This document shows, piece by piece, positions 17,273 through 34,451 of a stretch of DNA of 34,859 bases (its first letter is position 1; the number at the start of each line of letters is the position of its first letter). The notes under the pieces are model-generated. The model saw only the letters and a program-made list of their open reading frames with translations, searched no databases and had not been told where the DNA came from. Origin of the DNA: Myxococcota bacterium (GTDB lineage Bacteria > Myxococcota_A > UBA796 > CAJQPC01); the NCBI GenBank assembly GCA_036229005.1, contig JAZAMN010000046.1:1-34859 (forward strand). Reading direction: 5' to 3'. A program made the translations under genes and the position numbers.

Positions 17273-18187
17273 TCAGGGCGCCGTCGACCAGGCCTCCACC
17301 CGCGGCATCGAGCACGCGGTCTGCGTGCAGATCTGCAGCGCCAGCTCCCCGCTCAGTGGCGGAGCCATCGGGATCTCCAGCCTCTGGGTCCCCGTCAGCA
17401 CCCACGCGCTGCCCAGAGCCTCCAGGGACTTCTCCTCGCCCGGCGGGATGGGGACCACCAGCTCCGGGTGGCCTGCCACGCTGACCTCCAGCGGGCGCCC
17501 GATCTCCTCGCGGGTGCCGTAGACGTGGAACCCGGGTGCGAGCTCCAGCACCAGGGTCACGGTGTCGCTCCCGGCCTCGACCAGAAGGCGCGTCGCGCTG
17601 TCCCAGTCGGGAGCGCTGTTGCTGTCGGGGCTGGTGTCCTCGCGGGTGTCCTCGCTGGGGGGCGGGAGCCCCAGGGAGTCCCAGTCACCCAGGAGATCAG
17701 AGGGTGAGACCCGCTGGGTGAAGTTCACGTGGGTCCGCTCAAAGACCAGCCGACCCTGGGGATCGACCACCAGGGTGGTGGGGTGGGGGAGCTCGGGCTT
17801 GTCCCGCCGGGAGATGCCCCACTGCGCCCAGAGCGCCGGGTCCACGGAGCGGATGTCGCCCTCCAGCCCGTGGGTCTGCTTGGCCGCGGCGATCACCTCC
17901 GGGGGCTCGCTCGTCAGGTAGATGAGCGTTCCACCGGCGGCCTCCAGGGCCTCTTCGTGCTGCATCCAGTCACGCACCTGCGCGACACAGTAGGGTCACC
18001 AGTCGGGGGAGCGCAGCAGCTCCAGCACCACCACGCGGCCGTGGGGATCCGGCAGGGTCACCGGCTCGGTGGCGGTGGGCACGCTCTGGAGGACGGCGCC
18101 CAGCTCCAGAGGCTCGGCCTGGACCGGCGCCGATGCGCTCGGCGGCTGGCTGGCGATGCAGCCCATCAGGGTCATCAAGGTCGTCAT
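17273..18187 (-). CDS. Selenoprotein: AhpC/TSA (Prx-like thioredoxin fold, UxxC) fused to a DsbD N-terminal-like domain; Sec at TGA 17996-17998
   Basis: ORFs 17996..18187 and 17273..17977 share a frame and read LRSPDW-[TGA]-PYCVAQV across the stop. LPHPTTLVVD is the cis-Pro region. PGFHVY and QICTQTACSMP are DsbD-alpha motifs. Confidence 0.85.
17969..17986 (-). promoter_or_regulatory. Bacterial SECIS-like hairpin
   Basis: mRNA reads UGA-CCCUACUGU-GUCGCGC-AGGU-GCGUGAC: a 7-bp stem with a G-containing loop starting 16 nt after the UGA. Confidence 0.7.
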
Positions 18188-18219: not shown

Positions 18220-19146
18220 TCAGACCCCACCGCTCAGGCAGCGCAGCCCCCGAGACTCCAGCACCCTCTGGGCATCAGCGAGGTGCGGCTGGGTCGAGAA
18301 GACCGCCACCGCCGAGCGCTCACCGCCCGCGCCCATGAACTTGGCGCCCAGGGCACCCAGGCCGCGGAGCTCGGCGATCAGCCCGCCCAGGCGGGGGGCC
18401 TGCAGGGCGGGCAGATCCAGGCTGTCGTAAGCCGCCTGCGCCCGATCCAGCTTCTGCCCCAGCGCGGCCCAGTCCTGACGGTCCAGATCCTGGGCGCCTT
18501 GCTCAGCGGTTTCACCCCAGGTGCGCAGGGCGGCCTGCACGGCGGGCTGATCCCGGGCGGCGTTCAGGGCCTCCAGGATGGGGGCGGCGGGGACGGGATC
18601 GGGGAGCAGCACGACCAGGGTGGGGGGCGCCTTGCCCAGGGCCTTGCGCTGCTGGTCGGGCCAGCGGATCCGCTGCGGCTGGTCGAAGGCGCAGGCCAGG
18701 GGATCCAGGGGGCCGCAGGGCACGCCCAGGTCCTGACTCTCGGCCTCCAGGGCCCACGCGGCCGCCTGCACCCGGTCCAGCATGACGCCGGCGTGGGCAC
18801 CCAGGGCGCGCAGGGAGGCCACAAGCAGGGCGGCGCTGGAGCCCAGGCCCCGGCCCATGGGGATCTCCGAGCGAACAACCACGCGGGAGGGCGGCAGTTT
18901 CACGCCGTGGCGGGCCAGGGTGCGCGCCGCAGCGACCACGTAGCGGTTGGGGTCGGAGTCCAGGCAGCGGCCCGTCGCGTCGACGCGGGTCACGCCCAGC
19001 TCCGAGTGGATCACCAGGCCCCAGTCCGCAGCGCGGACCTGGACCTCCAGGCGGTTGGCGAGGGGGAGCACCAGGGAGGCGCCCTGTCCGGCCCAGTCGC
19101 AGTGCTCGCCCAGCAGGCAAGCGCGGGCGTGTGCGCTTCGAAGCAT
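18220..19146 (-). CDS. GHMP-family kinase (galactokinase/mevalonate kinase-like)
   Basis: LLGEHCDW, PMGRGLGSSAA ATP-binding motif, CGPLD and GAKFMGAGG. Confidence 0.85.
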   Translation of the reverse strand: MLRSAHARACLLGEHCDWAGQGASLVLPLANRLEVQVRAADWGLVIHSELGVTRVDATGRCLDSDPNRYVVAAARTLARHGVKLPPSRVVVRSEIPMGRGLGSSAALLVASLRALGAHAGVMLDRVQAAAWALEAESQDLGVPCGPLDPLACAFDQPQRIRWPDQQRKALGKAPPTLVVLLPDPVPAAPILEALNAARDQPAVQAALRTWGETAEQGAQDLDRQDWAALGQKLDRAQAAYDSLDLPALQAPRLGGLIAELRGLGALGAKFMGAGGERSAVAVFSTQPHLADAQRVLESRGLRCLSGGV

Positions 19147-24281: not shown

Positions 24282-25871
24282 ATGCAGCCCAGCGCCCTGA
24301 CCTCCCACCTCCGCGGCATCCTCGAACACCAGGGCCAAGGCCTGGTCGATCGGGAGCAGACGCTCGCCCTGAGCCTGCTGGCCGCGCTCGCGGGCCACAA
24401 CGTGCTGCTGCTGGGGCCCCCCGGGACGGCCAAGAGCCTGCTGGCCCGGCGCCTTTCGGGAGCCTTCGCGGACGCGACGCGCTTTGAGTACCTGCTCACG
24501 CGCTTCACCACGCCGGACGAGCTCTTTGGGCCGGTGTCGCTGCGCGCCCTCAAGGAGCGCGACGCCCTGGAGCGCAACACCCAGGGCTACCTGCCGGCGG
24601 CGCAGGTGGTGTTCCTGGACGAGATCTTCAAGGCCGGCTCGGCGATCCTCAACGCCCTGCTGACCCTGCTCAACGAGCGGATCTTCTTCAACGGCGGCAA
24701 GGCCGAGCCCGCGCAGCTCCTGGTCTTGGTGGCCGCCAGCAACGAGGTGCCCCAGGGCGGCGAGCTCCAGGCCCTCTACGACCGCTTCCCCCTGCGCCTG
24801 CTGGTCGAGCCCGTGCGGGGAGAGGCCGCGTTCGAGGCTCTGCTCACCGCCTCCACCGAGCCCGCGCCTCTGCCCGTCGGGAGCCGCCTGCGGGTGGCCG
24901 ATCTGCAGGTCCTGCGCGACGCCCGCGACCAGGTCGGGCTGTCCGCTGGGGCCTTCGCCGTGCTGTCTCGGCTGCGGGAGCGCCTGGGGGAGGGGAGTCC
25001 GGCCGACTGGGAGCGCCGCTATGTCTCCGACCGGCGCTGGCGGCAGATCCTGGCGCTGCTCAAGACCTCGGCCGGGGCCCACGGCGCGCACGAGGTGCAG
25101 GAGGCCGACTGCGGGCTGCTGCGGCACATGCTCTGGAATGACCCCCAGGACGCCGCCGCGATCGGGGAGCTGGTCGACAGCGTGCTCCAGGAGCGGGGGA
25201 TGGACGCCGACCTGGACGCGGGCCCCGTGGGGGTGCGGTGGAAGCAGCTCCTGGGCCAGCTCGCGCTGCACGACTCGGCCCTGGCGCCCCGGGTGCAGGC
25301 CTGGGTGCTCCGGGTGGGGGACCGCGAGCGCCGCTACAGCCCCCAGGAGCTCAGCGCCGCCCAGCAGAACCCCTGGGATCACGTCCTGCGCAGCGAGGGC
25401 CTGTACTGGGACGGGCAGGCCTTCAAGCAGCTCCAGCGCTCGGGCAAGCGGGGCTGGGTCCTGGGTGACTGGGCCTGCTCCAGCCAGGAGATCTGGGACA
25501 AGGTGCTGGGCCACCAGGAGCCGGTGTTCGACGAGACCGTGCGCACCGAGCTGGTCCCCGAGCTGGGCGAGGGCGCCGTGGTGGATCTGAGCCAGATCCC
25601 CGGACCCACCCGCACCCGCTGGCTGGGGGAGCTGGGGGTGATCCACGGCACCCTGGAGGCCCAGGAGCAGCAGCGCCGCGCGCGCCTGAACGCGCTGGAG
25701 GCCCAGCTCGACGAGCACCTGTTCTTGCGACAGGACGACGTGGCCGGCTTGCGCCTGGGGCTGGAGCGCGCGGGGGTGGAGATCGAGACATGGCGCGAGC
25801 GCCTGGCCGAGCTGGAGCAGGCGCTGATGGAGGGTGGCCGCTGGGTCACCTCGGCCCTGCCTGACACATGA
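24282..25871 (+). CDS. MoxR-family AAA+ ATPase, RavA-like
   Basis: Walker A GPPGTAKS; YLLTRFTTPDELFGP; Walker B FLDEIFKA; ASNE; ALYDRF; VSDRRW. Confidence 0.9.
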   Translation: MQPSALTSHLRGILEHQGQGLVDREQTLALSLLAALAGHNVLLLGPPGTAKSLLARRLSGAFADATRFEYLLTRFTTPDELFGPVSLRALKERDALERNTQGYLPAAQVVFLDEIFKAGSAILNALLTLLNERIFFNGGKAEPAQLLVLVAASNEVPQGGELQALYDRFPLRLLVEPVRGEAAFEALLTASTEPAPLPVGSRLRVADLQVLRDARDQVGLSAGAFAVLSRLRERLGEGSPADWERRYVSDRRWRQILALLKTSAGAHGAHEVQEADCGLLRHMLWNDPQDAAAIGELVDSVLQERGMDADLDAGPVGVRWKQLLGQLALHDSALAPRVQAWVLRVGDRERRYSPQELSAAQQNPWDHVLRSEGLYWDGQAFKQLQRSGKRGWVLGDWACSSQEIWDKVLGHQEPVFDETVRTELVPELGEGAVVDLSQIPGPTRTRWLGELGVIHGTLEAQEQQRRARLNALEAQLDEHLFLRQDDVAGLRLGLERAGVEIETWRERLAELEQALMEGGRWVTSALPDT

Positions 25872-27241
25872 AGCCCTGGGCGCCGGCGCGGGCAGCCTGG
25901 CGATCGCTGCTGGAGGGGGAGTCCGCCCGGGTCCCCGCCTTGGCGCCTCCTTGGACCGCCCTGGAGGCCCTGCCGGGGCTGCTCTCCCAGTGGGTGCCCT
26001 GGACCCGGGGCCAGCCTGCCGCGGTGGAGCGGGCGCTGTCTCTGGTGGAGGAGCACCTCTCGGAGCTGCAGGAGCTCTTGGTCCTCCATCCGGACTCCCC
26101 GTCGCGCGGAGATCTCGCTCTCGCAGTCACCAGCGAGGACACACTGCTCGTGTTGGGCCTGCTGCCGCAGTCTGAGCGCGCCGGCTTGTCGCAGGTTGAT
26201 ACACCCGCGCAGGCCATCACCTGCCTGGAGCGGGGCCGGCGTCTGCTGGAGCGCCGCACCCTGGACTGGGAGCAGCAGACCATCGCCCGCGAGCTGCCCC
26301 GCCTGCTGGAGCGGGTGGACCGGGAGCTGCAGGGGCTGGGGCGACTGGGGGACGCGCTGCAGCTTGGGCTCGGGCAGCTCGGGCGGGGCGCGGACCGAAG
26401 CGTGGGGAGCTGGCAGCAGGCCGGCTGGGAGGGGCTGGAGGCGGCGGCGCGGGTCATGGGCAGCAGCTCCTCGCTTGCGGAGTATGTGCGACAGATTGGG
26501 CGGCGCCAGGGGGCCAGCGCGGTGAGCCGACCGGGTCCAGCGCCCATCGCAGCCCCTCCCTCGGAGATCCGGGGGATCACCCTGGGCCGGGATCTGGACC
26601 GCGTGCTCTCCAGTGAGCTGGGCCTGCTGGCGGATCCGGAGCTGGAGTGGGTGTTCGCGGAGCGGCTGCTCTCGGGGCGGCTGCTGCAGCTCGACGTGGA
26701 CCCGGCGATGCAGCGCGCAGAGGACGCCGGGCGCGTACCCATCGGGACCCACGCGGGGCCCATCCTGCTCCTGCTGGACACCAGCGGCTCGATGCGGGGG
26801 GAGCCCGAGCAGCTCGCCAAGGCGCTGACCCTGGCGATGCTCAAGGAGGCGCTCCTGGCCGGTCGGGCCTGTCACCTGGTCGCGTTCGGGAGCGACCGGC
26901 AGCTCCAGGTGGCCGAGCTCTCCGCGCTGCCGGCGGGGCTGCCCAAGCTGCTGGAGCTGCTCAGCGGGCGCTTCGCGGGGGGGACGGACCCGAGCTTGGC
27001 GCTGGAGCGGGCGCTGCAGTGGGAGGAGCCGCGGGCGGATCTCTTGATGGTGACAGACGGGGCCTTTGTCGCAAGAACCGAGCTGCTGAAGCAGATTGAA
27101 GCGGCCCAGCAGGCGAGGGGACTGCGCTGTCACATGTTGGTGGTGGGGGAGGGGCAGCACGCTGGGACCCACCGCGGCTGGGCGCAGTGTTCGCGGTGGG
27201 TGGGGAGCCTGTCGCAGGGGGAGGTCGTGGATGCGGGCTGA
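25868..27241 (+). CDS. VWA-domain protein, ViaA-like
   Basis: ATGA coupling to the ATPase; GITLGRDLDRVLSSEL; MIDAS motifs DTSGSM, GGTD and VTDG. Confidence 0.85.
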   Translation: MKPWAPARAAWRSLLEGESARVPALAPPWTALEALPGLLSQWVPWTRGQPAAVERALSLVEEHLSELQELLVLHPDSPSRGDLALAVTSEDTLLVLGLLPQSERAGLSQVDTPAQAITCLERGRRLLERRTLDWEQQTIARELPRLLERVDRELQGLGRLGDALQLGLGQLGRGADRSVGSWQQAGWEGLEAAARVMGSSSSLAEYVRQIGRRQGASAVSRPGPAPIAAPPSEIRGITLGRDLDRVLSSELGLLADPELEWVFAERLLSGRLLQLDVDPAMQRAEDAGRVPIGTHAGPILLLLDTSGSMRGEPEQLAKALTLAMLKEALLAGRACHLVAFGSDRQLQVAELSALPAGLPKLLELLSGRFAGGTDPSLALERALQWEEPRADLLMVTDGAFVARTELLKQIEAAQQARGLRCHMLVVGEGQHAGTHRGWAQCSRWVGSLSQGEVVDAG

Positions 27242-29841: not shown

Positions 29842-30906
29842 TCAACGACCCTGGCGGCGCTTCATGACCAGAGCCAGCACCTTGGCGACGGGCTGATACA
29901 GTTCTTCGGGGATGGGGTGGCCCACCTTGCCGTTGGCGTGCAGGGCGCGGGCCAGAGGGCGGTTCTCGACCTGCTGGATGCTGTGGCGGCGGGCCTCGGC
30001 TTTGATCTTCATGGCGATGGCGTCGACGCCCTTGGCCAGGATGATGGGGGCCGGGTACTCTTCGGGTCTGTAGCGGATGGCGACGGCGTAGTGGGTGGGG
30101 TTCGTGATGACCATGTCGGCCTCCTGGACCTTCTGTATGGCCATCTGACCCATGGCGAGCTGCCGGGCGCGGGCGCGGCGCTGGGCCTTGACGTGGGGGT
30201 CGCCGTCGTCCTGCTTGCGCTCGTCCTTGACCTCCTGGGTGGACATCTTCATGTCCTCGTGGTGTTTGTAGTAGTTGTATCCGTAGTCGATGATGCCGAG
30301 CACGATGAGCAGGGGGGCCGCTGACTGGAGCATGCCCACCGCGAGATCCCCCAGGACGGCGAGCTGCTGGCTGGGGTCGAGCTGGGCCATCACGATGAGT
30401 TGACCGGCCTTGTCCCGCATGCCCCACCACACGACGCCGCCCAGGGCACCCAGCTTGAGCAGACCCTTGGTGAGCTCGATGAGCGGCTGTAGGCTCAGGA
30501 ACTTCTGCTTGAGGGCGGGGAGGGGGTTCAAGCGCTCGGGCTTGGGCTCCAGGGCCTTGGTGGCGAGCTGGAAGCGGCTCTGGGCGAAGCCGACGAAGAG
30601 TCCGCCCATGAGTACGGCGCCCAGCACCGGCATCATGGCCATCAGGCCGGAGAGCCCGGCGAAGGCGAAGAGATCCATGAAGTCGCCCGCCGCGGAGCCG
30701 GAGAGCTCGCTGCCCCAGGCCCGGTAGGCGACCGCCCGGAACTGCTGGGCCATCCAGGGCGCGAACGCGAGCAGCGCGCCACCGCCAACCAGGACGACGG
30801 CCGCGGAGCTGATCTCCTGGGAGCGGACGATCTGGCCCTTCTCCGCCGCGTTCCGTAGTTTTCTCTCGGACGCGTCGTGTTGTTTTTCCTGGTCGTCGTC
30901 AGCCAC
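29842..30906 (-). CDS. flhB: Flagellar export substrate-specificity switch FlhB
   Basis: EKGQIVRSQE, TM region, MSTQEVKDERKQDDGDP, NPTH autocleavage motif and ENRPLARAL. Confidence 0.93.
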   Translation of the reverse strand: MADDDQEKQHDASERKLRNAAEKGQIVRSQEISSAAVVLVGGGALLAFAPWMAQQFRAVAYRAWGSELSGSAAGDFMDLFAFAGLSGLMAMMPVLGAVLMGGLFVGFAQSRFQLATKALEPKPERLNPLPALKQKFLSLQPLIELTKGLLKLGALGGVVWWGMRDKAGQLIVMAQLDPSQQLAVLGDLAVGMLQSAAPLLIVLGIIDYGYNYYKHHEDMKMSTQEVKDERKQDDGDPHVKAQRRARARQLAMGQMAIQKVQEADMVITNPTHYAVAIRYRPEEYPAPIILAKGVDAIAMKIKAEARRHSIQQVENRPLARALHANGKVGHPIPEELYQPVAKVLALVMKRRQGR

Positions 30907-31666
30907 CGGCCCCTCCGATCCCGACGAGCAGGCCGGTCAGCCAACGGGCCGCCTCCTGCACCGCTTGGGCATGGGTCTCCAGGAGCACGGGCAGGGAGAG
31001 CGCGAAGAGCGCCAGCGAGGCCACCGAGGTGAGGATGCTGCCCACGGAGAAGTAGATGTTCATGCGCGGGGCCAGGCGCACGAGGATGCCGACGAAGATG
31101 TTGGTGATCCAGACCAGGCCCAGGACGGGGCCGGCCAGGCGCGCGCCCAGGGAGATGGACTCGCTGATGGCGTGGAGGAGCACCGGGGCGCCCGCGAGCA
31201 GGTTGGGCAGGCTGCCGGCGGGGACGACCGAGAAGCTCTCGCCCAGCACGCGCAGGCAGTAGAGGTGGCCGCCGACGCTGAGGAAGACCATGCCGGCCAG
31301 CCAGGTGGCCAGGGTGCTGAGCACGCCGCTGGAGACCTTGAGGACGGGGTTGAACAGGGAGGCCATGCCGAGGCCTCCCTGCTGGGACATGATCTCGGTG
31401 CCCAGGGAGAGGGCGCCGAACACCACCGAGACGACCGTGCCCATGAGCAGGCCCAGCCCGGCCTCGCTTGCGACCTGGACGATGAGGATGCCGAAGCTGG
31501 CAGGCAGCTCCGGGAGGGTGAGCAGAGGTGCGATGACCAGGGTCAAGCCCGCTGCCCCCAAGACATGCACGTACTTGGGCACGCCCTGGGTGGAGAGCAG
31601 GGGGAGGCTCATCAGCAGGCCGCCGATCCGGGCGAACACGAGCAAGCCCAGCACGATGGCGCTCAC
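30899..31666 (-). CDS. fliR: Flagellar export protein FliR
   Basis: FARI, E..LG, Q.GLGMASLFNP, GGH and RLAPRMNIY; lies between fliQ and flhB. Confidence 0.9.
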   Translation of the reverse strand: MSAIVLGLLVFARIGGLLMSLPLLSTQGVPKYVHVLGAAGLTLVIAPLLTLPELPASFGILIVQVASEAGLGLLMGTVVSVVFGALSLGTEIMSQQGGLGMASLFNPVLKVSSGVLSTLATWLAGMVFLSVGGHLYCLRVLGESFSVVPAGSLPNLLAGAPVLLHAISESISLGARLAGPVLGLVWITNIFVGILVRLAPRMNIYFSVGSILTSVASLALFALSLPVLLETHAQAVQEAARWLTGLLVGIGGAGG

Positions 31667-31926
31667 GGCGTCCCGATGCTCTCGAACATGGCGGTGGAGA
31701 AGTCCACGACGTGCTGGAGCATCCAGCCGCCGGCCAGGGAGAAGATGAGGAACACGCCGAGCATCTTGGGGACGAACACCAGGGTCATCTCCTGCACCTG
31801 GGTCACGGACTGGATCAGGGAGATGGTGGTGCCGACCAGCAGCGCGGTGACGAGCAGGGGGCCGGCCACGGTGAGGGCGGTGATCATGGCCTGCTGGCCG
31901 AAGAAGAGGGCGGTGTCCAGGTCCAC
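31663..31926 (-). CDS. fliQ: Flagellar export protein FliQ
   Basis: QSVTQVQEMTLVFVPK signature. Confidence 0.95.
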   Translation of the reverse strand: MDLDTALFFGQQAMITALTVAGPLLVTALLVGTTISLIQSVTQVQEMTLVFVPKMLGVFLIFSLAGGWMLQHVVDFSTAMFESIGTP

Positions 31927-31936
31927 GGCGGCGTCC

Positions 31937-32626
31937 TCAGAGGGGGGCGTTGAAGGACTGGACCATGTTGGTGACCAGCAGGCCCCAGCCGTCCATGAGC
32001 ACGAAGATCAACAGCTTGAAGGGCATCGCGATGACCGGGGGCGGGAGCATCATCATGCCCATGCCCAGGAGCACCGAGCCCACGACCAGGTCGATGACCA
32101 GGAAGGGGATGTAGACCTTGATGGCGATGACGAAGGCGGCCCGCAGCTCGCTGAGCACGTAGGCGCTGGTGAGGGCGGCGGTGGGGATCTCCTCGACGGT
32201 CTCGACCTCGAGCTTGCCGATCTCCAGCACTGTTCGCATGTCGTCGCGCTGGACGTTGGCCATCATGAAGCCGCGCATGGGCTGCATGGCGCCGTCGATG
32301 GCGTCCAGGGTCTCCATCTCGCCGGCCATGAAGGGTTGGATGCCCTGCTCCCAGGACTGGGTCAGGGTGGGGCCCATCACGAGCAGGCTCAGGAAGAGGC
32401 TCAGGCCGATGAGGACCTGGTTGGGCGGGGACTGCTGCAGCCCCAGGGCCTGTCGGAGCAGGGAGAACACCACGATGAAGCGGGTGAAGGGGGTCATCAC
32501 CAGCAGCAGAGCCGGGATGAAGCTCATCGCCGTGAAGAGGACGAGCAGGCGCACGGTGGCGCTCACCTCGTCTCCGGTCGCGGTCAGGCCGACCGCTTGC
32601 TCCAGCAGGACATCACCGCCCATCAC
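31937..32626 (-). CDS. fliP: Flagellar export pore protein FliP
   Basis: MTPFTRF, GLQQSPPNQVLIGL, SEL..AF, GMMMLPP and PFKLLIFVLMDGW. Confidence 0.95.
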   Translation of the reverse strand: MMGGDVLLEQAVGLTATGDEVSATVRLLVLFTAMSFIPALLLVMTPFTRFIVVFSLLRQALGLQQSPPNQVLIGLSLFLSLLVMGPTLTQSWEQGIQPFMAGEMETLDAIDGAMQPMRGFMMANVQRDDMRTVLEIGKLEVETVEEIPTAALTSAYVLSELRAAFVIAIKVYIPFLVIDLVVGSVLLGMGMMMLPPPVIAMPFKLLIFVLMDGWGLLVTNMVQSFNAPL

Positions 32627-33507
32627 ATCCTCCGGCCCACGATGTCGCGGGTGCTCAGGAACTCCTGCTTGTCGACCTCAGCGCGGAGGCGGGGGGCAGG
32701 TCCGGGCTTGGGACCCGAGGGGGGGCTCTGCCAGGCCTTGACCACGGCGGGGCCGTCGGACTCGGGCTCCTCGTCGATGGGGGCCAGGTCCGCAGAGGTG
32801 AAGCGGCCGACCAGGCTGGGCCGGGCGCGCTGGCGCTTGGGGGCGCTGGCGACAACGTGGGGGCGCACGGGGGTGTCGCCCGCGGTGTCCTCGTCGTCGG
32901 TGTCCTCGATCTCGACCTGCACGCTGGGCTGGCGCTGCTGGGTGAGCTCGGGGCTGTCGTTGGGGATCAGGAAGCCGGGGATGCTGCCGCCCAGGTCGGA
33001 GACCAACTTGGGGGCGCCGTCGCCGAGGCCGATGAGCAGGCGCCGGGTCTCGCCGTCCTGGGCTTCGACCTCCATGAGCACCAGGGCGGCGTTTCCACCC
33101 AGGCTCTGGCGGGCCAGGATCTCCATCTTCTGGTCGCTCTGGGTGAGCTTGCCCTGGAGCTGCTTGCGCATGAGCACCATCACGCCGGCGGCGCCCAGGC
33201 CCAGCAGGCCCATGACCCAGGACCAGCGGCTGCCGGAGCTGGACTCTTGGGGGCTCTGGTCGAGCCAGGAGTCCAGGGCCGTGCCTTGCGGGGCGACCGT
33301 GGTGCTGGATGCGCTGGGGAGCGCTGCCAGGGGATCGGCCGGGGCTTCGGTCGCTGGAGCCGCCTCAGGGGGAGGAGCGAGGGGCCCGTAGACTGCCGGC
33401 TCCGCCGGAGCTGTGGACTCCACCGTCTCCACTTGGGGAGGGGGCTCGGGCCCCAGCAAGGGCACGTCGGCCCAAGCGAGGTGCGCGAGCAGCAGCAGGG
33501 AGCTCAT
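32623..33507 (-). CDS. fliO: FliO-like flagellar biogenesis protein with long low-complexity extensions
   Basis: Lies between fliN and fliP; TM followed by MEILARQSLGGNAALVLMEV...RLLIG. Confidence 0.7.
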   Translation of the reverse strand: MSSLLLLAHLAWADVPLLGPEPPPQVETVESTAPAEPAVYGPLAPPPEAAPATEAPADPLAALPSASSTTVAPQGTALDSWLDQSPQESSSGSRWSWVMGLLGLGAAGVMVLMRKQLQGKLTQSDQKMEILARQSLGGNAALVLMEVEAQDGETRRLLIGLGDGAPKLVSDLGGSIPGFLIPNDSPELTQQRQPSVQVEIEDTDDEDTAGDTPVRPHVVASAPKRQRARPSLVGRFTSADLAPIDEEPESDGPAVVKAWQSPPSGPKPGPAPRLRAEVDKQEFLSTRDIVGRRM

Positions 33508-33797
33508 GCGCTCTCCTTGAGGTCCTCGTCGGCTTCGACCTCGTCGCTCGCGTCGGCGTTTCCGCCCAGGATGGAGGTGATGCGGATGGCCAGTCGCTCG
33601 CCGACCATGACCACCTCGCCGCGGGCGTAGACGCGATCTCCGACCACCAGGTCCAGGGGCTGATCGGCGGGGCGATCGAGCTCGAGGATCTGGTCGTCTC
33701 CCATCTCCGCGAGCTCGCGGATGGTGAGGCGGGTTCGGCCGAGCTCGACCACGACGTCGAGGGGGATATCGTGGAGGAAGGCGACGTCCTTGGGCAT
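33504..33797 (-). CDS. fliN: Flagellar motor switch protein FliN (SpoA domain)
   Basis: LHDIPLDVVVELGRT, ILELDR and ARGEVVMV...IRIT. ATG 33797 follows GGAG (alternative start 33824). Confidence 0.88.
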   Translation of the reverse strand: MPKDVAFLHDIPLDVVVELGRTRLTIRELAEMGDDQILELDRPADQPLDLVVGDRVYARGEVVMVGERLAIRITSILGGNADASDEVEADEDLKESA

Positions 33798-33883
33798 GTC
33801 TGACTCCGAGTGGTGTCCTGCCATCGGACGGGGATCGTCGGAGTTGAGCGCTTTGTTTGGGATTTGAGAGTTGGGTGGGAATG

Positions 33884-34451
33884 CTGGCTGTGTTTTTTGG
33901 GTAGGGGGCAAGCCCCCTACGCCGGCGGAGCCGGCTGGACCCCCAGGGGGGACTGTGCTTTTTTGGTAGGGGGCAAGCCCCCTACGCCGGCGGAGCCGGC
34001 TGGACCCCCAGGGGGGACCTTCGCCAGTCCCCCCCAGGCCCCCCCCACGGCGTCGGGTCGCGTTCCGCGACCAGCACATCGCCTCCAATTGCCACCCAGG
34101 CCCCCCGGGGGGCTCTCTCCCCGTCGGGTCGGGCAAATGACGGCGCAATGCAGCCCGCGGGGCCGACTTGCACCATGGTTCTCTGGGGCTGAGGGCGGGC
34201 GGGCTGCTCGGTCCGGAGACGACGCCGCTCTTGGGCGGGCGGGTGGCTTGGTGAGCGGGGGTGCCGGGTAGTAGCGCCTGGCTGTGTTTTTTTAGTAGGG
34301 GGCAAGCCCCCTACGCCGGCGCAGCCGGCTGGACCCCCAAGGGGGACCCTCGCCGGTCCCCCCCAGGCCCCCCCACGGCGTCGGGTCGCGTTCCGCGACC
34401 TGCACTTCGCCTCCATCTGCCACCGAGGCCCCCAGGGGGGCCTCTCTCCCC
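33884..34451. repeat. Three copies (partial 33884-33952; long about 33953-34122 and 34278-34451) of a multi-hairpin REP-like element
   Basis: Each copy has a T-run, then GTAGGGGGC-AA-GCCCCCTAC, GCCGGC-GSA-GCCGGC and TGGACCCCCA. The long copies add GGGGGAC..GTCCCCC, GGTCGCG-TTC-CGCGACC and GGCCCCC.GGGGGG. Confidence 0.9.

Follow-up and report, generated by a model that had tools for sequence, protein, structure and literature searches.

In Escherichia coli, electrons travel from thioredoxin to tmDsbD, then to cDsbD and nDsbD, and finally to CcmG or DsbC; the partners of nDsbD are thioredoxin-fold proteins, since it receives electrons from cDsbD and gives them to CcmG and DsbC, and Cys103 and Cys109 form its active-site pair (PMC3137068). 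In Caulobacter, ScsB reduces TlpA and the Prx-like protein PrxL, whose peroxidase activity was undetectable (PMC3322552). Among selenoproteins, Prx-like thiol:disulfide oxidoreductases with a PF00578 domain and a UxxC motif are listed in Table 1 of a recent catalogue (PMC13188914), a Sargasso Sea study counted 22 Prx-like sequences (PMC1088965), and BSepDB holds 57,630 entries (PMC13326102).

The gene described here has features of both groups: its predicted product carries selenocysteine (Sec) in a Prx-like domain and ends in a DsbD-alpha-like domain. It lies in a stretch of 34,859 nucleotides from a Myxococcota bacterium (assembly GCA_036229005.1, contig JAZAMN010000046.1), here called the window, and its features are collected in Table 1. 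The frame starts with ATG at 18187 and ends at 17275-17273 on the minus strand with a stop that is likewise TGA; codon 64 is TGA as well, in the context R-S-P-D-W-U-P-Y-C. A sequence-only reading of this DNA had taken the gene for a hidden selenoprotein split in two by the open reading frame track, with the minus-strand codons CGC TCC CCC GAC TGG TGA CCC TAC TGT and a read-through product of 304 residues. Re-reading the sequence gave the same codons and a 304-codon frame that only the TGA at 17998-17996 interrupts. The split is found in the databases too, which hold the piece before the UGA (P0031) and the piece after it (P0002) as separate proteins, coming from near-identical strains.

Table 1. 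Features of the gene in the window, and in-frame-TGA genes elsewhere in the host genome
Feature	Position	Strand	Basis or remark
Whole gene	17273..18187	minus	304 codons, one in-frame TGA (predicted Sec64); homologues align full length
Short hydrophobic leader, lipobox-like LMGC (Cys10), predicted lipoprotein signal	18158..18187	minus	sequence
AhpC/TSA (Prx-like thioredoxin-fold) domain, residues ~24-178	17654..18118	minus	Pfam PF00578 and fold match
In-frame UGA, predicted selenocysteine 64, position 1 of U-P-Y-C	17996..17998	minus	
Cys67, second residue of UxxC	17987..17989	minus	invariant in 14/14 alignment rows
Predicted bacterial SECIS	17969..17986	minus	7-bp stem, AGGU loop 16 nt past the UGA, -10.2 kcal/mol
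P134-H135-P136 loop	17780..17788	minus	alignment; aligned with the Arg site of thiol peroxidase
DsbD-alpha-like immunoglobulin domain, residues ~192-304, GFHVYG and Q-x-C-x4-C-x2-P	17276..17614	minus	Pfam, profile, fold
Cys287 and Cys292	17312..17329	minus	invariant in 14/14 rows; aligned with nDsbD Cys103 and Cys109
Thioredoxin-fold in-frame-TGA genes	C16:73480, C31:141973, C59:15418, C4:17214, C20:145132	minus, plus, minus, minus, plus	UPVC, TYGU, UPTC, UGAC, UGGC

The codon itself appears sound. When the sequence was checked for TGC or TGT at this position, contigs of two other marine runs, which cover all of the stretch and differ from it at 26 and 28 bases, showed no difference in the TGA, and an assembly error is thereby ruled out. 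Across the gene, strain X2 has 12 synonymous and 5 changed codons (12/17 synonymous) and strain X3 has 9 and 6 (9/15 synonymous); before the UGA, the changes in one strain are all synonymous (5), and those in the other amount to two conservative residue substitutions. Judged from these codons, purifying selection acts on both sides of the UGA in X2 and X3. A GTG at 17977 starts a frame of 234 codons downstream of the UGA, but a protein starting there would forfeit the leader and the active site. A contig of 185 bases from an RNA run overlaps part of the C-terminal domain and does not establish transcription, and a promoter and terminator scan around the gene found nothing.

The host genome (6.4 Mb, 70% GC, 94% complete) contains all four of selA, selB, selC and selD, the genes that the sequence-only reading had named for checking, each above its curated cut-off: selA scores 478 bits, selB 340 (both of its winged-helix domains are present), selD 280, and the tRNA-Sec, with anticodon TCA, 64.7. 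The host SelD (L018:298-2508, contig C35) is a Cys form, joined on one chain of 737 aa behind a pyridine nucleotide-disulfide oxidoreductase domain to which it is fused. TGA terminates 2715 of 3473 training ORFs and is the commonest stop; the genetic code is accordingly standard, without reassignment of TGA, and a tRNA-Trp(CCA) is present. As an internal control, the genome carries a formate dehydrogenase alpha-like gene (a molybdopterin enzyme; C14:65058, minus strand) with the motif CAATUHAP and a downstream hairpin.

One in-frame TGA is contained in five of the 30 AhpC/TSA matches of the host genome, the window gene among them. Five further thioredoxin-fold genes have a single in-frame TGA at their redox motif (Table 1), most of them with lipoprotein-like leaders, and on their sequences are likely to be additional unannotated selenoproteins; among the other Sec candidates of the genome, four of five show G-led hairpin loops at 17-18 nt. 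The TlpA-like UPTC gene is divergent to an MsrA gene with an export-like leader (C59:15191-16371), and the two products could possibly be a reductant and its substrate. A genome scan for read-through frames by the UxxC motif alone returned 391 candidates, mostly noise, and a codon-usage filter was used instead.

Directly 3' of the UGA, the hairpin GUCGCGC-AGGU-GCGUGAC was recovered as the sequence-only reading had described it, with the stem starting nine bases past the UGA. The likeness to fdhF proposed at the same time also held, GCAGGU being the longest word in common with the UGA context of E. coli fdhF (first 45 nt), at an offset of 14 nt after the UGA in the window and 15 nt in fdhF. Compared with the SECIS consensus model given in section 5 of PMC13188914, which we applied with our own script and not with bSECISearch, the hairpin fits in stem length, loop, distance and energy (values in Table 1); Rfam gave no match over the region up to E 10. 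The 24-nt core had a folding z-score of -2.9, against -1.1 when 39 nt were folded and +0.43 when 69 nt were. Model-compliant hairpins also follow 255 of 1500 true TGA stops (17%) sampled in this 70% GC genome, 117 of the 1500 being equally stable, so the hairpin is weak evidence alone and convincing only via conservation. Energy as the sole criterion was discarded, as neither the folding z-scores nor the 1500-stop comparison made it discriminating.

Conservation was analysed in two clades, and the hairpin covaries in both. Random synonymous recoding of the same peptide preserved the hairpin in 4-5% of trials, with a median of 0.058 over 17 close rows. In the 17 rows of the close clade, 88% of the stem cells are paired and four of the seven pairs have changed on both sides; 0 of 500 shuffles reached covariation as high and slid registers were at most 59% paired, figures that are supportive and not proof because the shuffles ignore kinship and the structure was taken from the window itself. 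The stem is also constrained by the encoded protein. The AG(G/U)U loop is located at exactly 16 nt in all 18 close Sec rows, 17 of which reach -7.5 kcal/mol. Neither of the two Cys rows reaches this energy and both fail the SECIS model, a loss that counts as one event and not two, since both DNA rows are of one lineage. A distant clade of 19 rows has a different 7-bp stem, 97% paired, with its loop at 21 nt.

We examined 108 loci, obtained from scans of genome and metagenome contigs with C-terminal GFHVYG patterns (12 loci, and the best 80 of 85) together with 16 loci from the host's order; 92 of the 108 thus came from C-terminal patterns, which are blind to the Sec column. Distinct loci bearing the motif numbered 69, and the column reads TGA in 67 and TGC in two, in agreement with the earlier expectation that homologues would have Cys or TGA there; the remainder of the 108 are duplicates, loci cut by a contig end, or the C-terminal domain only. 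Many of the motif-bearing loci are near-copies, and reduction to 85% identity leaves 38 Sec and 2 Cys rows. The TGA column is conserved across homologues of about 20-45% identity, with Cys in the others, and five more full-length Cys proteins were found besides the two TGC loci. Of the 22 best protein matches (E 1e-30 or better), 19 align downstream of the UGA only and three are full-length Cys forms, so records of the former kind lose the leader and the active site.

In the host's order, a match is present in 21 of 154 genomes: in 16 it covers the motif, which has TGA in 14 and Cys in two, and in five it is limited to the C-terminal domain. In the partial match of genome G073, our pattern found no motif. 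The fused gene was not found at E 1e-15 in any of the 21 other genomes of the host's family, three of them in its genus, and its distribution is therefore patchy; it is present in three other families of the order, which may reflect loss or transfer. The 13 other TGA genomes have selA (13/13) and selB (12/13, the one without it being 86% complete). Co-occurrence with the Sec machinery is uninformative here, because selA is present in 137 of the 154 genomes of the order, and selA and selB also occur in the two genomes with a Cys form. A tree was built from 21 close rows after masking of the Sec column; on it the five Cys rows require three changes and a single Cys clade is rejected (p-AU 3e-9), so Sec and Cys have been exchanged more than once, in a direction that the unrooted tree does not fix. 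Four loci (L032, L034, L038 and L039) are titled Enterobacterales or Pseudomonadota; the same sequences occur in genomes of the host's order, and the submitters' labels look wrong.

With the machinery present, the TGA kept in other assemblies and the homologues carrying TGA or Cys, the selenoprotein reading is upheld: the UGA is almost certainly recoded to Sec, with SelB predicted to bind the hairpin and deliver Sec-tRNA. Sec at UxxC is ordinary for a Prx-like fold. The earlier reading was right about the Sec site, missed the second (DsbD-alpha-like) redox domain and the lipoprotein-like N-terminus, and gave too much weight to the hairpin alone.

The N-terminal leader, MTTLMTLMGC, resembles the short lipoprotein signals of the host lineage, and a loose lipobox-like pattern of our own making, applied in place of a dedicated predictor, fits 11 of the 14 rows of alignment A2. 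We predict with moderate confidence that a lipid anchor keeps the protein in the cell envelope. The domain that follows matches PF00578 at 36.5 bits (cut-off 26) over residues 39-148 when C is substituted for U. Its best fold match is AhpE (5ID2: Z 18.5, rmsd 2.3, 147 aligned), and the top 20 matches are all peroxiredoxin-family chains (Z 15-18.5), with ResA, TlpA and DsbE lower (Z 11-14). The peroxiredoxin motif PxxxTxxC/U is absent, Sec taking the place of its Thr and Ser60 that of its Pro. By its UxxC motif the domain may belong to CDD subfamily cd02970 (PRX_like2), the alternative being cd02966 (TlpA-like). H135 and P136 occupy the Arg site of thiol peroxidase 2JSY; a conserved Arg, which we take to be catalytic in that enzyme, was not found at the aligned site. 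By its sequence, the P134-H135-P136 stretch is likely the thioredoxin cis-Pro loop.

The C-terminal domain scored 28 bits with PF11412 (DsbD_N; cut-off 25) over residues 199-298. Its profile matched E. coli nDsbD at E 1e-5, a single-sequence PDB search gave nothing, and its fold matched 1JPE (Z 12.0, rmsd 2.8, 107 aligned). G-F-H-x-Y and Q-x-C-x4-C-x2-P are invariant in 14/14 rows. AlphaFold, run on the 14-row alignment, returned a model that is confident within each domain (mean pLDDT 86.5) but has a pTM of 0.55 and a low-confidence linker near 180-190; given this pTM and the loose linker, the model does not fix the mutual placement of the two domains. The transmembrane beta domain PF02683 was not found in the window protein, and its sole copy in the genome lies on contig C20, in the one full alpha-beta-gamma DsbD-like gene of the host (DsbD/ScsB-like).

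The pair of domains occurs in several arrangements. The Sec domain and the DsbD-alpha domain are encoded by separate abutting genes in L040 and L042, both of Acidobacteriota, and in L062, and L144 has the Sec domain alone. In L040 and L042 the two-gene pair sits within a conserved block that also includes parA/parB, a gene for a bifunctional nuclease and a radical SAM/TRAM gene. A large metagenome clade (L049-L111) has fused Sec forms that start with MPLPPRDF, show no visible signal peptide and have the SECIS-like loop at 21 nt; Q/E and L/V residue changes accompany the changes of stem pairs in this clade. Envelope location and dependence on DsbD therefore cannot hold family-wide. Elsewhere in the host genome, L127:797-2058 (contig C57) has an AhpC/TSA gene of the Cys type (FNPGCPFV) and, directly after it, a free DsbD-alpha-like gene, an arrangement resembling the PrxL and free ScsB-alpha of PMC3322552, and a second free DsbD-alpha-like gene lies on C31 (L125).

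As regards the surroundings of the gene, a GHMP-kinase gene on the same strand (18220-19146, minus) ends 32 bases upstream and is possibly co-transcribed; among 102 flanking ORFs scanned, a GHMP kinase was not seen beside homologues. Between 327 and 12233 (minus), the window encodes LigB-type dioxygenases (one fused to a RidA-like domain), an aldehyde dehydrogenase, an asparaginase II-like protein, a luciferase-like monooxygenase, a short-chain dehydrogenase and a tryptophan 2,3-dioxygenase, a run whose predicted products suggest breakdown of aromatic compounds or tryptophan. Genes for a MoxR AAA ATPase and its vWA partner lie at 24282-27241 (plus), and flagellar export genes (FliR-, FliP-, FliO- and FliN-like) at 30899-34148 (minus).

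For the mode of action we lean, if only somewhat, towards a relay in which an envelope lipoprotein takes electrons from membrane DsbD through its immunoglobulin domain and recharges its Sec site, which in turn reduces substrate disulfides; this degree of belief covers the mechanism as a whole and, with it, the direction in which the electrons flow. Cys287-Cys292 would be reduced by the gamma domain of the DsbD/ScsB-like membrane protein encoded on C20, these cysteines would pass the electrons on within the chain to the selenenylsulfide of Sec64 and Cys67, in the way that nDsbD of E. coli reduces CcmG, and the Sec64 selenolate would attack oxidised thiols of envelope substrates. The relay is favoured by the match of the C-terminal domain to nDsbD with both cysteines and by the recurrence of the same domain pair as abutting genes, as well as by the thioredoxin-fold nature of the nDsbD partners, by the reduction of PrxL and TlpA by Caulobacter ScsB and by the presence of a full DsbD-like gene in the host. 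Against it, the N-terminal fold is nearer to peroxiredoxins than to ResA, TlpA or DsbE, and single-domain forms exist (the Sec domain of L144 and the five C-domain matches of the order). No recurring redox neighbour, and no hint of a substrate, was seen in the 102 flanking ORFs scanned, out of 176 picked by a heuristic at 27 loci.

Electrons might instead flow in reverse, from a membrane or cytoplasmic donor to the Sec domain, acting in the role of DsbD-gamma, and from there through the alpha-like domain to other thioredoxin-fold proteins, the whole being a DsbD minus its membrane part. nDsbD naturally receives electrons from a thioredoxin fold (PMC3137068), the clade with no visible signal peptide could draw on cytoplasmic thioredoxin reductase, and free DsbD-alpha-like genes occur in the host genome and in relatives. 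We nevertheless consider this direction unlikely: the fold of the N-terminal domain is the larger Prx/ResA type found in terminal acceptors, the profile matches cDsbD chains no better than E 0.1-0.2, such chains are absent from the 50 fold matches listed, and the host DsbD-like protein already owns a gamma domain.

Comparably improbable is a selenium peroxidase, in which Sec64 would reduce H2O2 or lipid peroxides and Cys67 would resolve, with the alpha-like domain as private reductant. The lack of PxxxTxxC/U and of a conserved Arg at the aligned site speaks against it, while the uniformly peroxiredoxin-family top 20 fold matches speak for it. Selenolates are reactive enough to need less catalytic help, which also counts in its favour. 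An envelope peroxiredoxin fed by ScsB exists, but Caulobacter PrxL, which is Prx-like and likewise lacks the motif and Arg residues, showed no peroxidase activity, with the reservation that it is a Cys protein of another subfamily (PMC3322552). Still less probable, in our judgement, is that the two domains are independent, or that the C-terminal cysteines are merely a structural disulfide, the domains in either case being joined for co-export or for the binding of substrates; forms with a single domain or with two genes do occur and the model leaves the domains undocked, yet the nDsbD active-site features are invariant in 14/14 rows and the pairing recurs, as a fusion and as abutting genes, in distant lineages.

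That the protein is no selenoprotein at all, the TGA being a real stop (of a pseudogene, a split gene or an assembly error) or Trp under a changed code, is very improbable, for although compliant hairpins follow 17% of true stops and the GTG 17977 frame exists, the same column is TGA or Cys across homologues of about 20-45% identity, two other strains keep the TGA between flanks whose changes are mostly synonymous, the genome uses TGA as its main stop and has a tRNA-Trp(CCA), and the downstream frame lacks the leader and the active site; Trp reassignment, a frameshift and a two-gene reading were considered and rejected.

More broadly, we propose tentatively that the gene may belong to a widespread uncurated family of self-recharging selenoproteins, in which each chain would unite a Sec Prx-like reductase with its own DsbD-alpha shuttle. 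One Myxococcota order would have it as an envelope lipoprotein, Acidobacteriota would encode it in two genes, and the members in a large metagenomic clade would, it appears, be cytoplasmic; the SECIS register would have moved between clades (16 versus 21 nt), with several Sec/Cys exchanges. If this is true, the cytoplasmic form would be a DsbD-alpha redox fold operating outside the DsbD pathway. The read-through reading corrects a systematic annotation error, and the bacterial selenoproteome gains a domain architecture, predicted to act in the envelope. Being soluble and made of just two domains, the protein also offers a compact system in which to study how electrons pass between a thioredoxin fold and a domain of the nDsbD type, and its natural Sec and Cys versions allow selenium and sulfur chemistry to be compared. 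What is known of Sec recoding itself is unchanged.

Novelty was judged by the catalogue table, NCBIfam and the literature. A fusion of AhpC/TSA with DsbD-alpha is not in the table of 119 families of PMC13188914, where the only DsbD entry is the rhodanese/DsbD fusion TsoB. Literature searches on selenoprotein AhpC/DsbD fusions and on Myxococcota selenoproteins found no paper on this fusion. In NCBIfam the window protein had no match at E 0.1, and its homologues pass no model either; six of them score 35-46 bits with NF040769 (SelL-related redox protein), whose cut-off is 120. Members may already sit in BSepDB as Prx-like. What is new is the fusion to a DsbD-alpha-like domain, together with how broad a family is being truncated in annotation.

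By its sequence features the window protein is a member of the Prx-like UxxC selenoproteins (PF00578), with which it shares the Pfam domain, the UxxC motif as opposed to the TxxU of Sec peroxiredoxins, a SECIS just 3' of the UGA and Cys homologues; unlike the Prx-like selenoproteins catalogued in that source, it has a C-terminal DsbD-alpha-like domain and a lipobox-like leader (PMC13188914). By the same features it is not a true peroxiredoxin, a DsbD or an NF040769 protein. NF040769 and the true peroxiredoxins BCP/PrxQ, AhpE and Tpx have the same fold as its N-terminal domain, from which the peroxiredoxin motif is missing. With nDsbD (1L6P, 1JPE), the C-terminal domain shares the immunoglobulin fold, the cysteine pair and a Tyr aligned in the GYYLY stretch, with four residues between the cysteines where nDsbD has five; unlike DsbD, the chain is without a membrane domain, and its thioredoxin-fold partner is fused N-terminally and bears Sec. 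In the Caulobacter ScsB/PrxL/TlpA/PprX system, a DsbD-family alpha domain likewise reduces exported Prx-like and TlpA-like proteins and free alphas occur, but the components are separate polypeptides that use Cys chemistry, the alpha is of another class and the Prx-like protein is of subfamily cd02969 (PMC3322552). In a comparison with the exported reductases TlpA, ResA and CcmG, the leader and the motif fit, the fold match (Z 11-14) is lower than that to peroxiredoxins and the homologues are far below the NCBIfam ResA/DsbE cut-offs; the action proposed here would resemble that of a CcmG/TlpA-type reductase with a tethered nDsbD.
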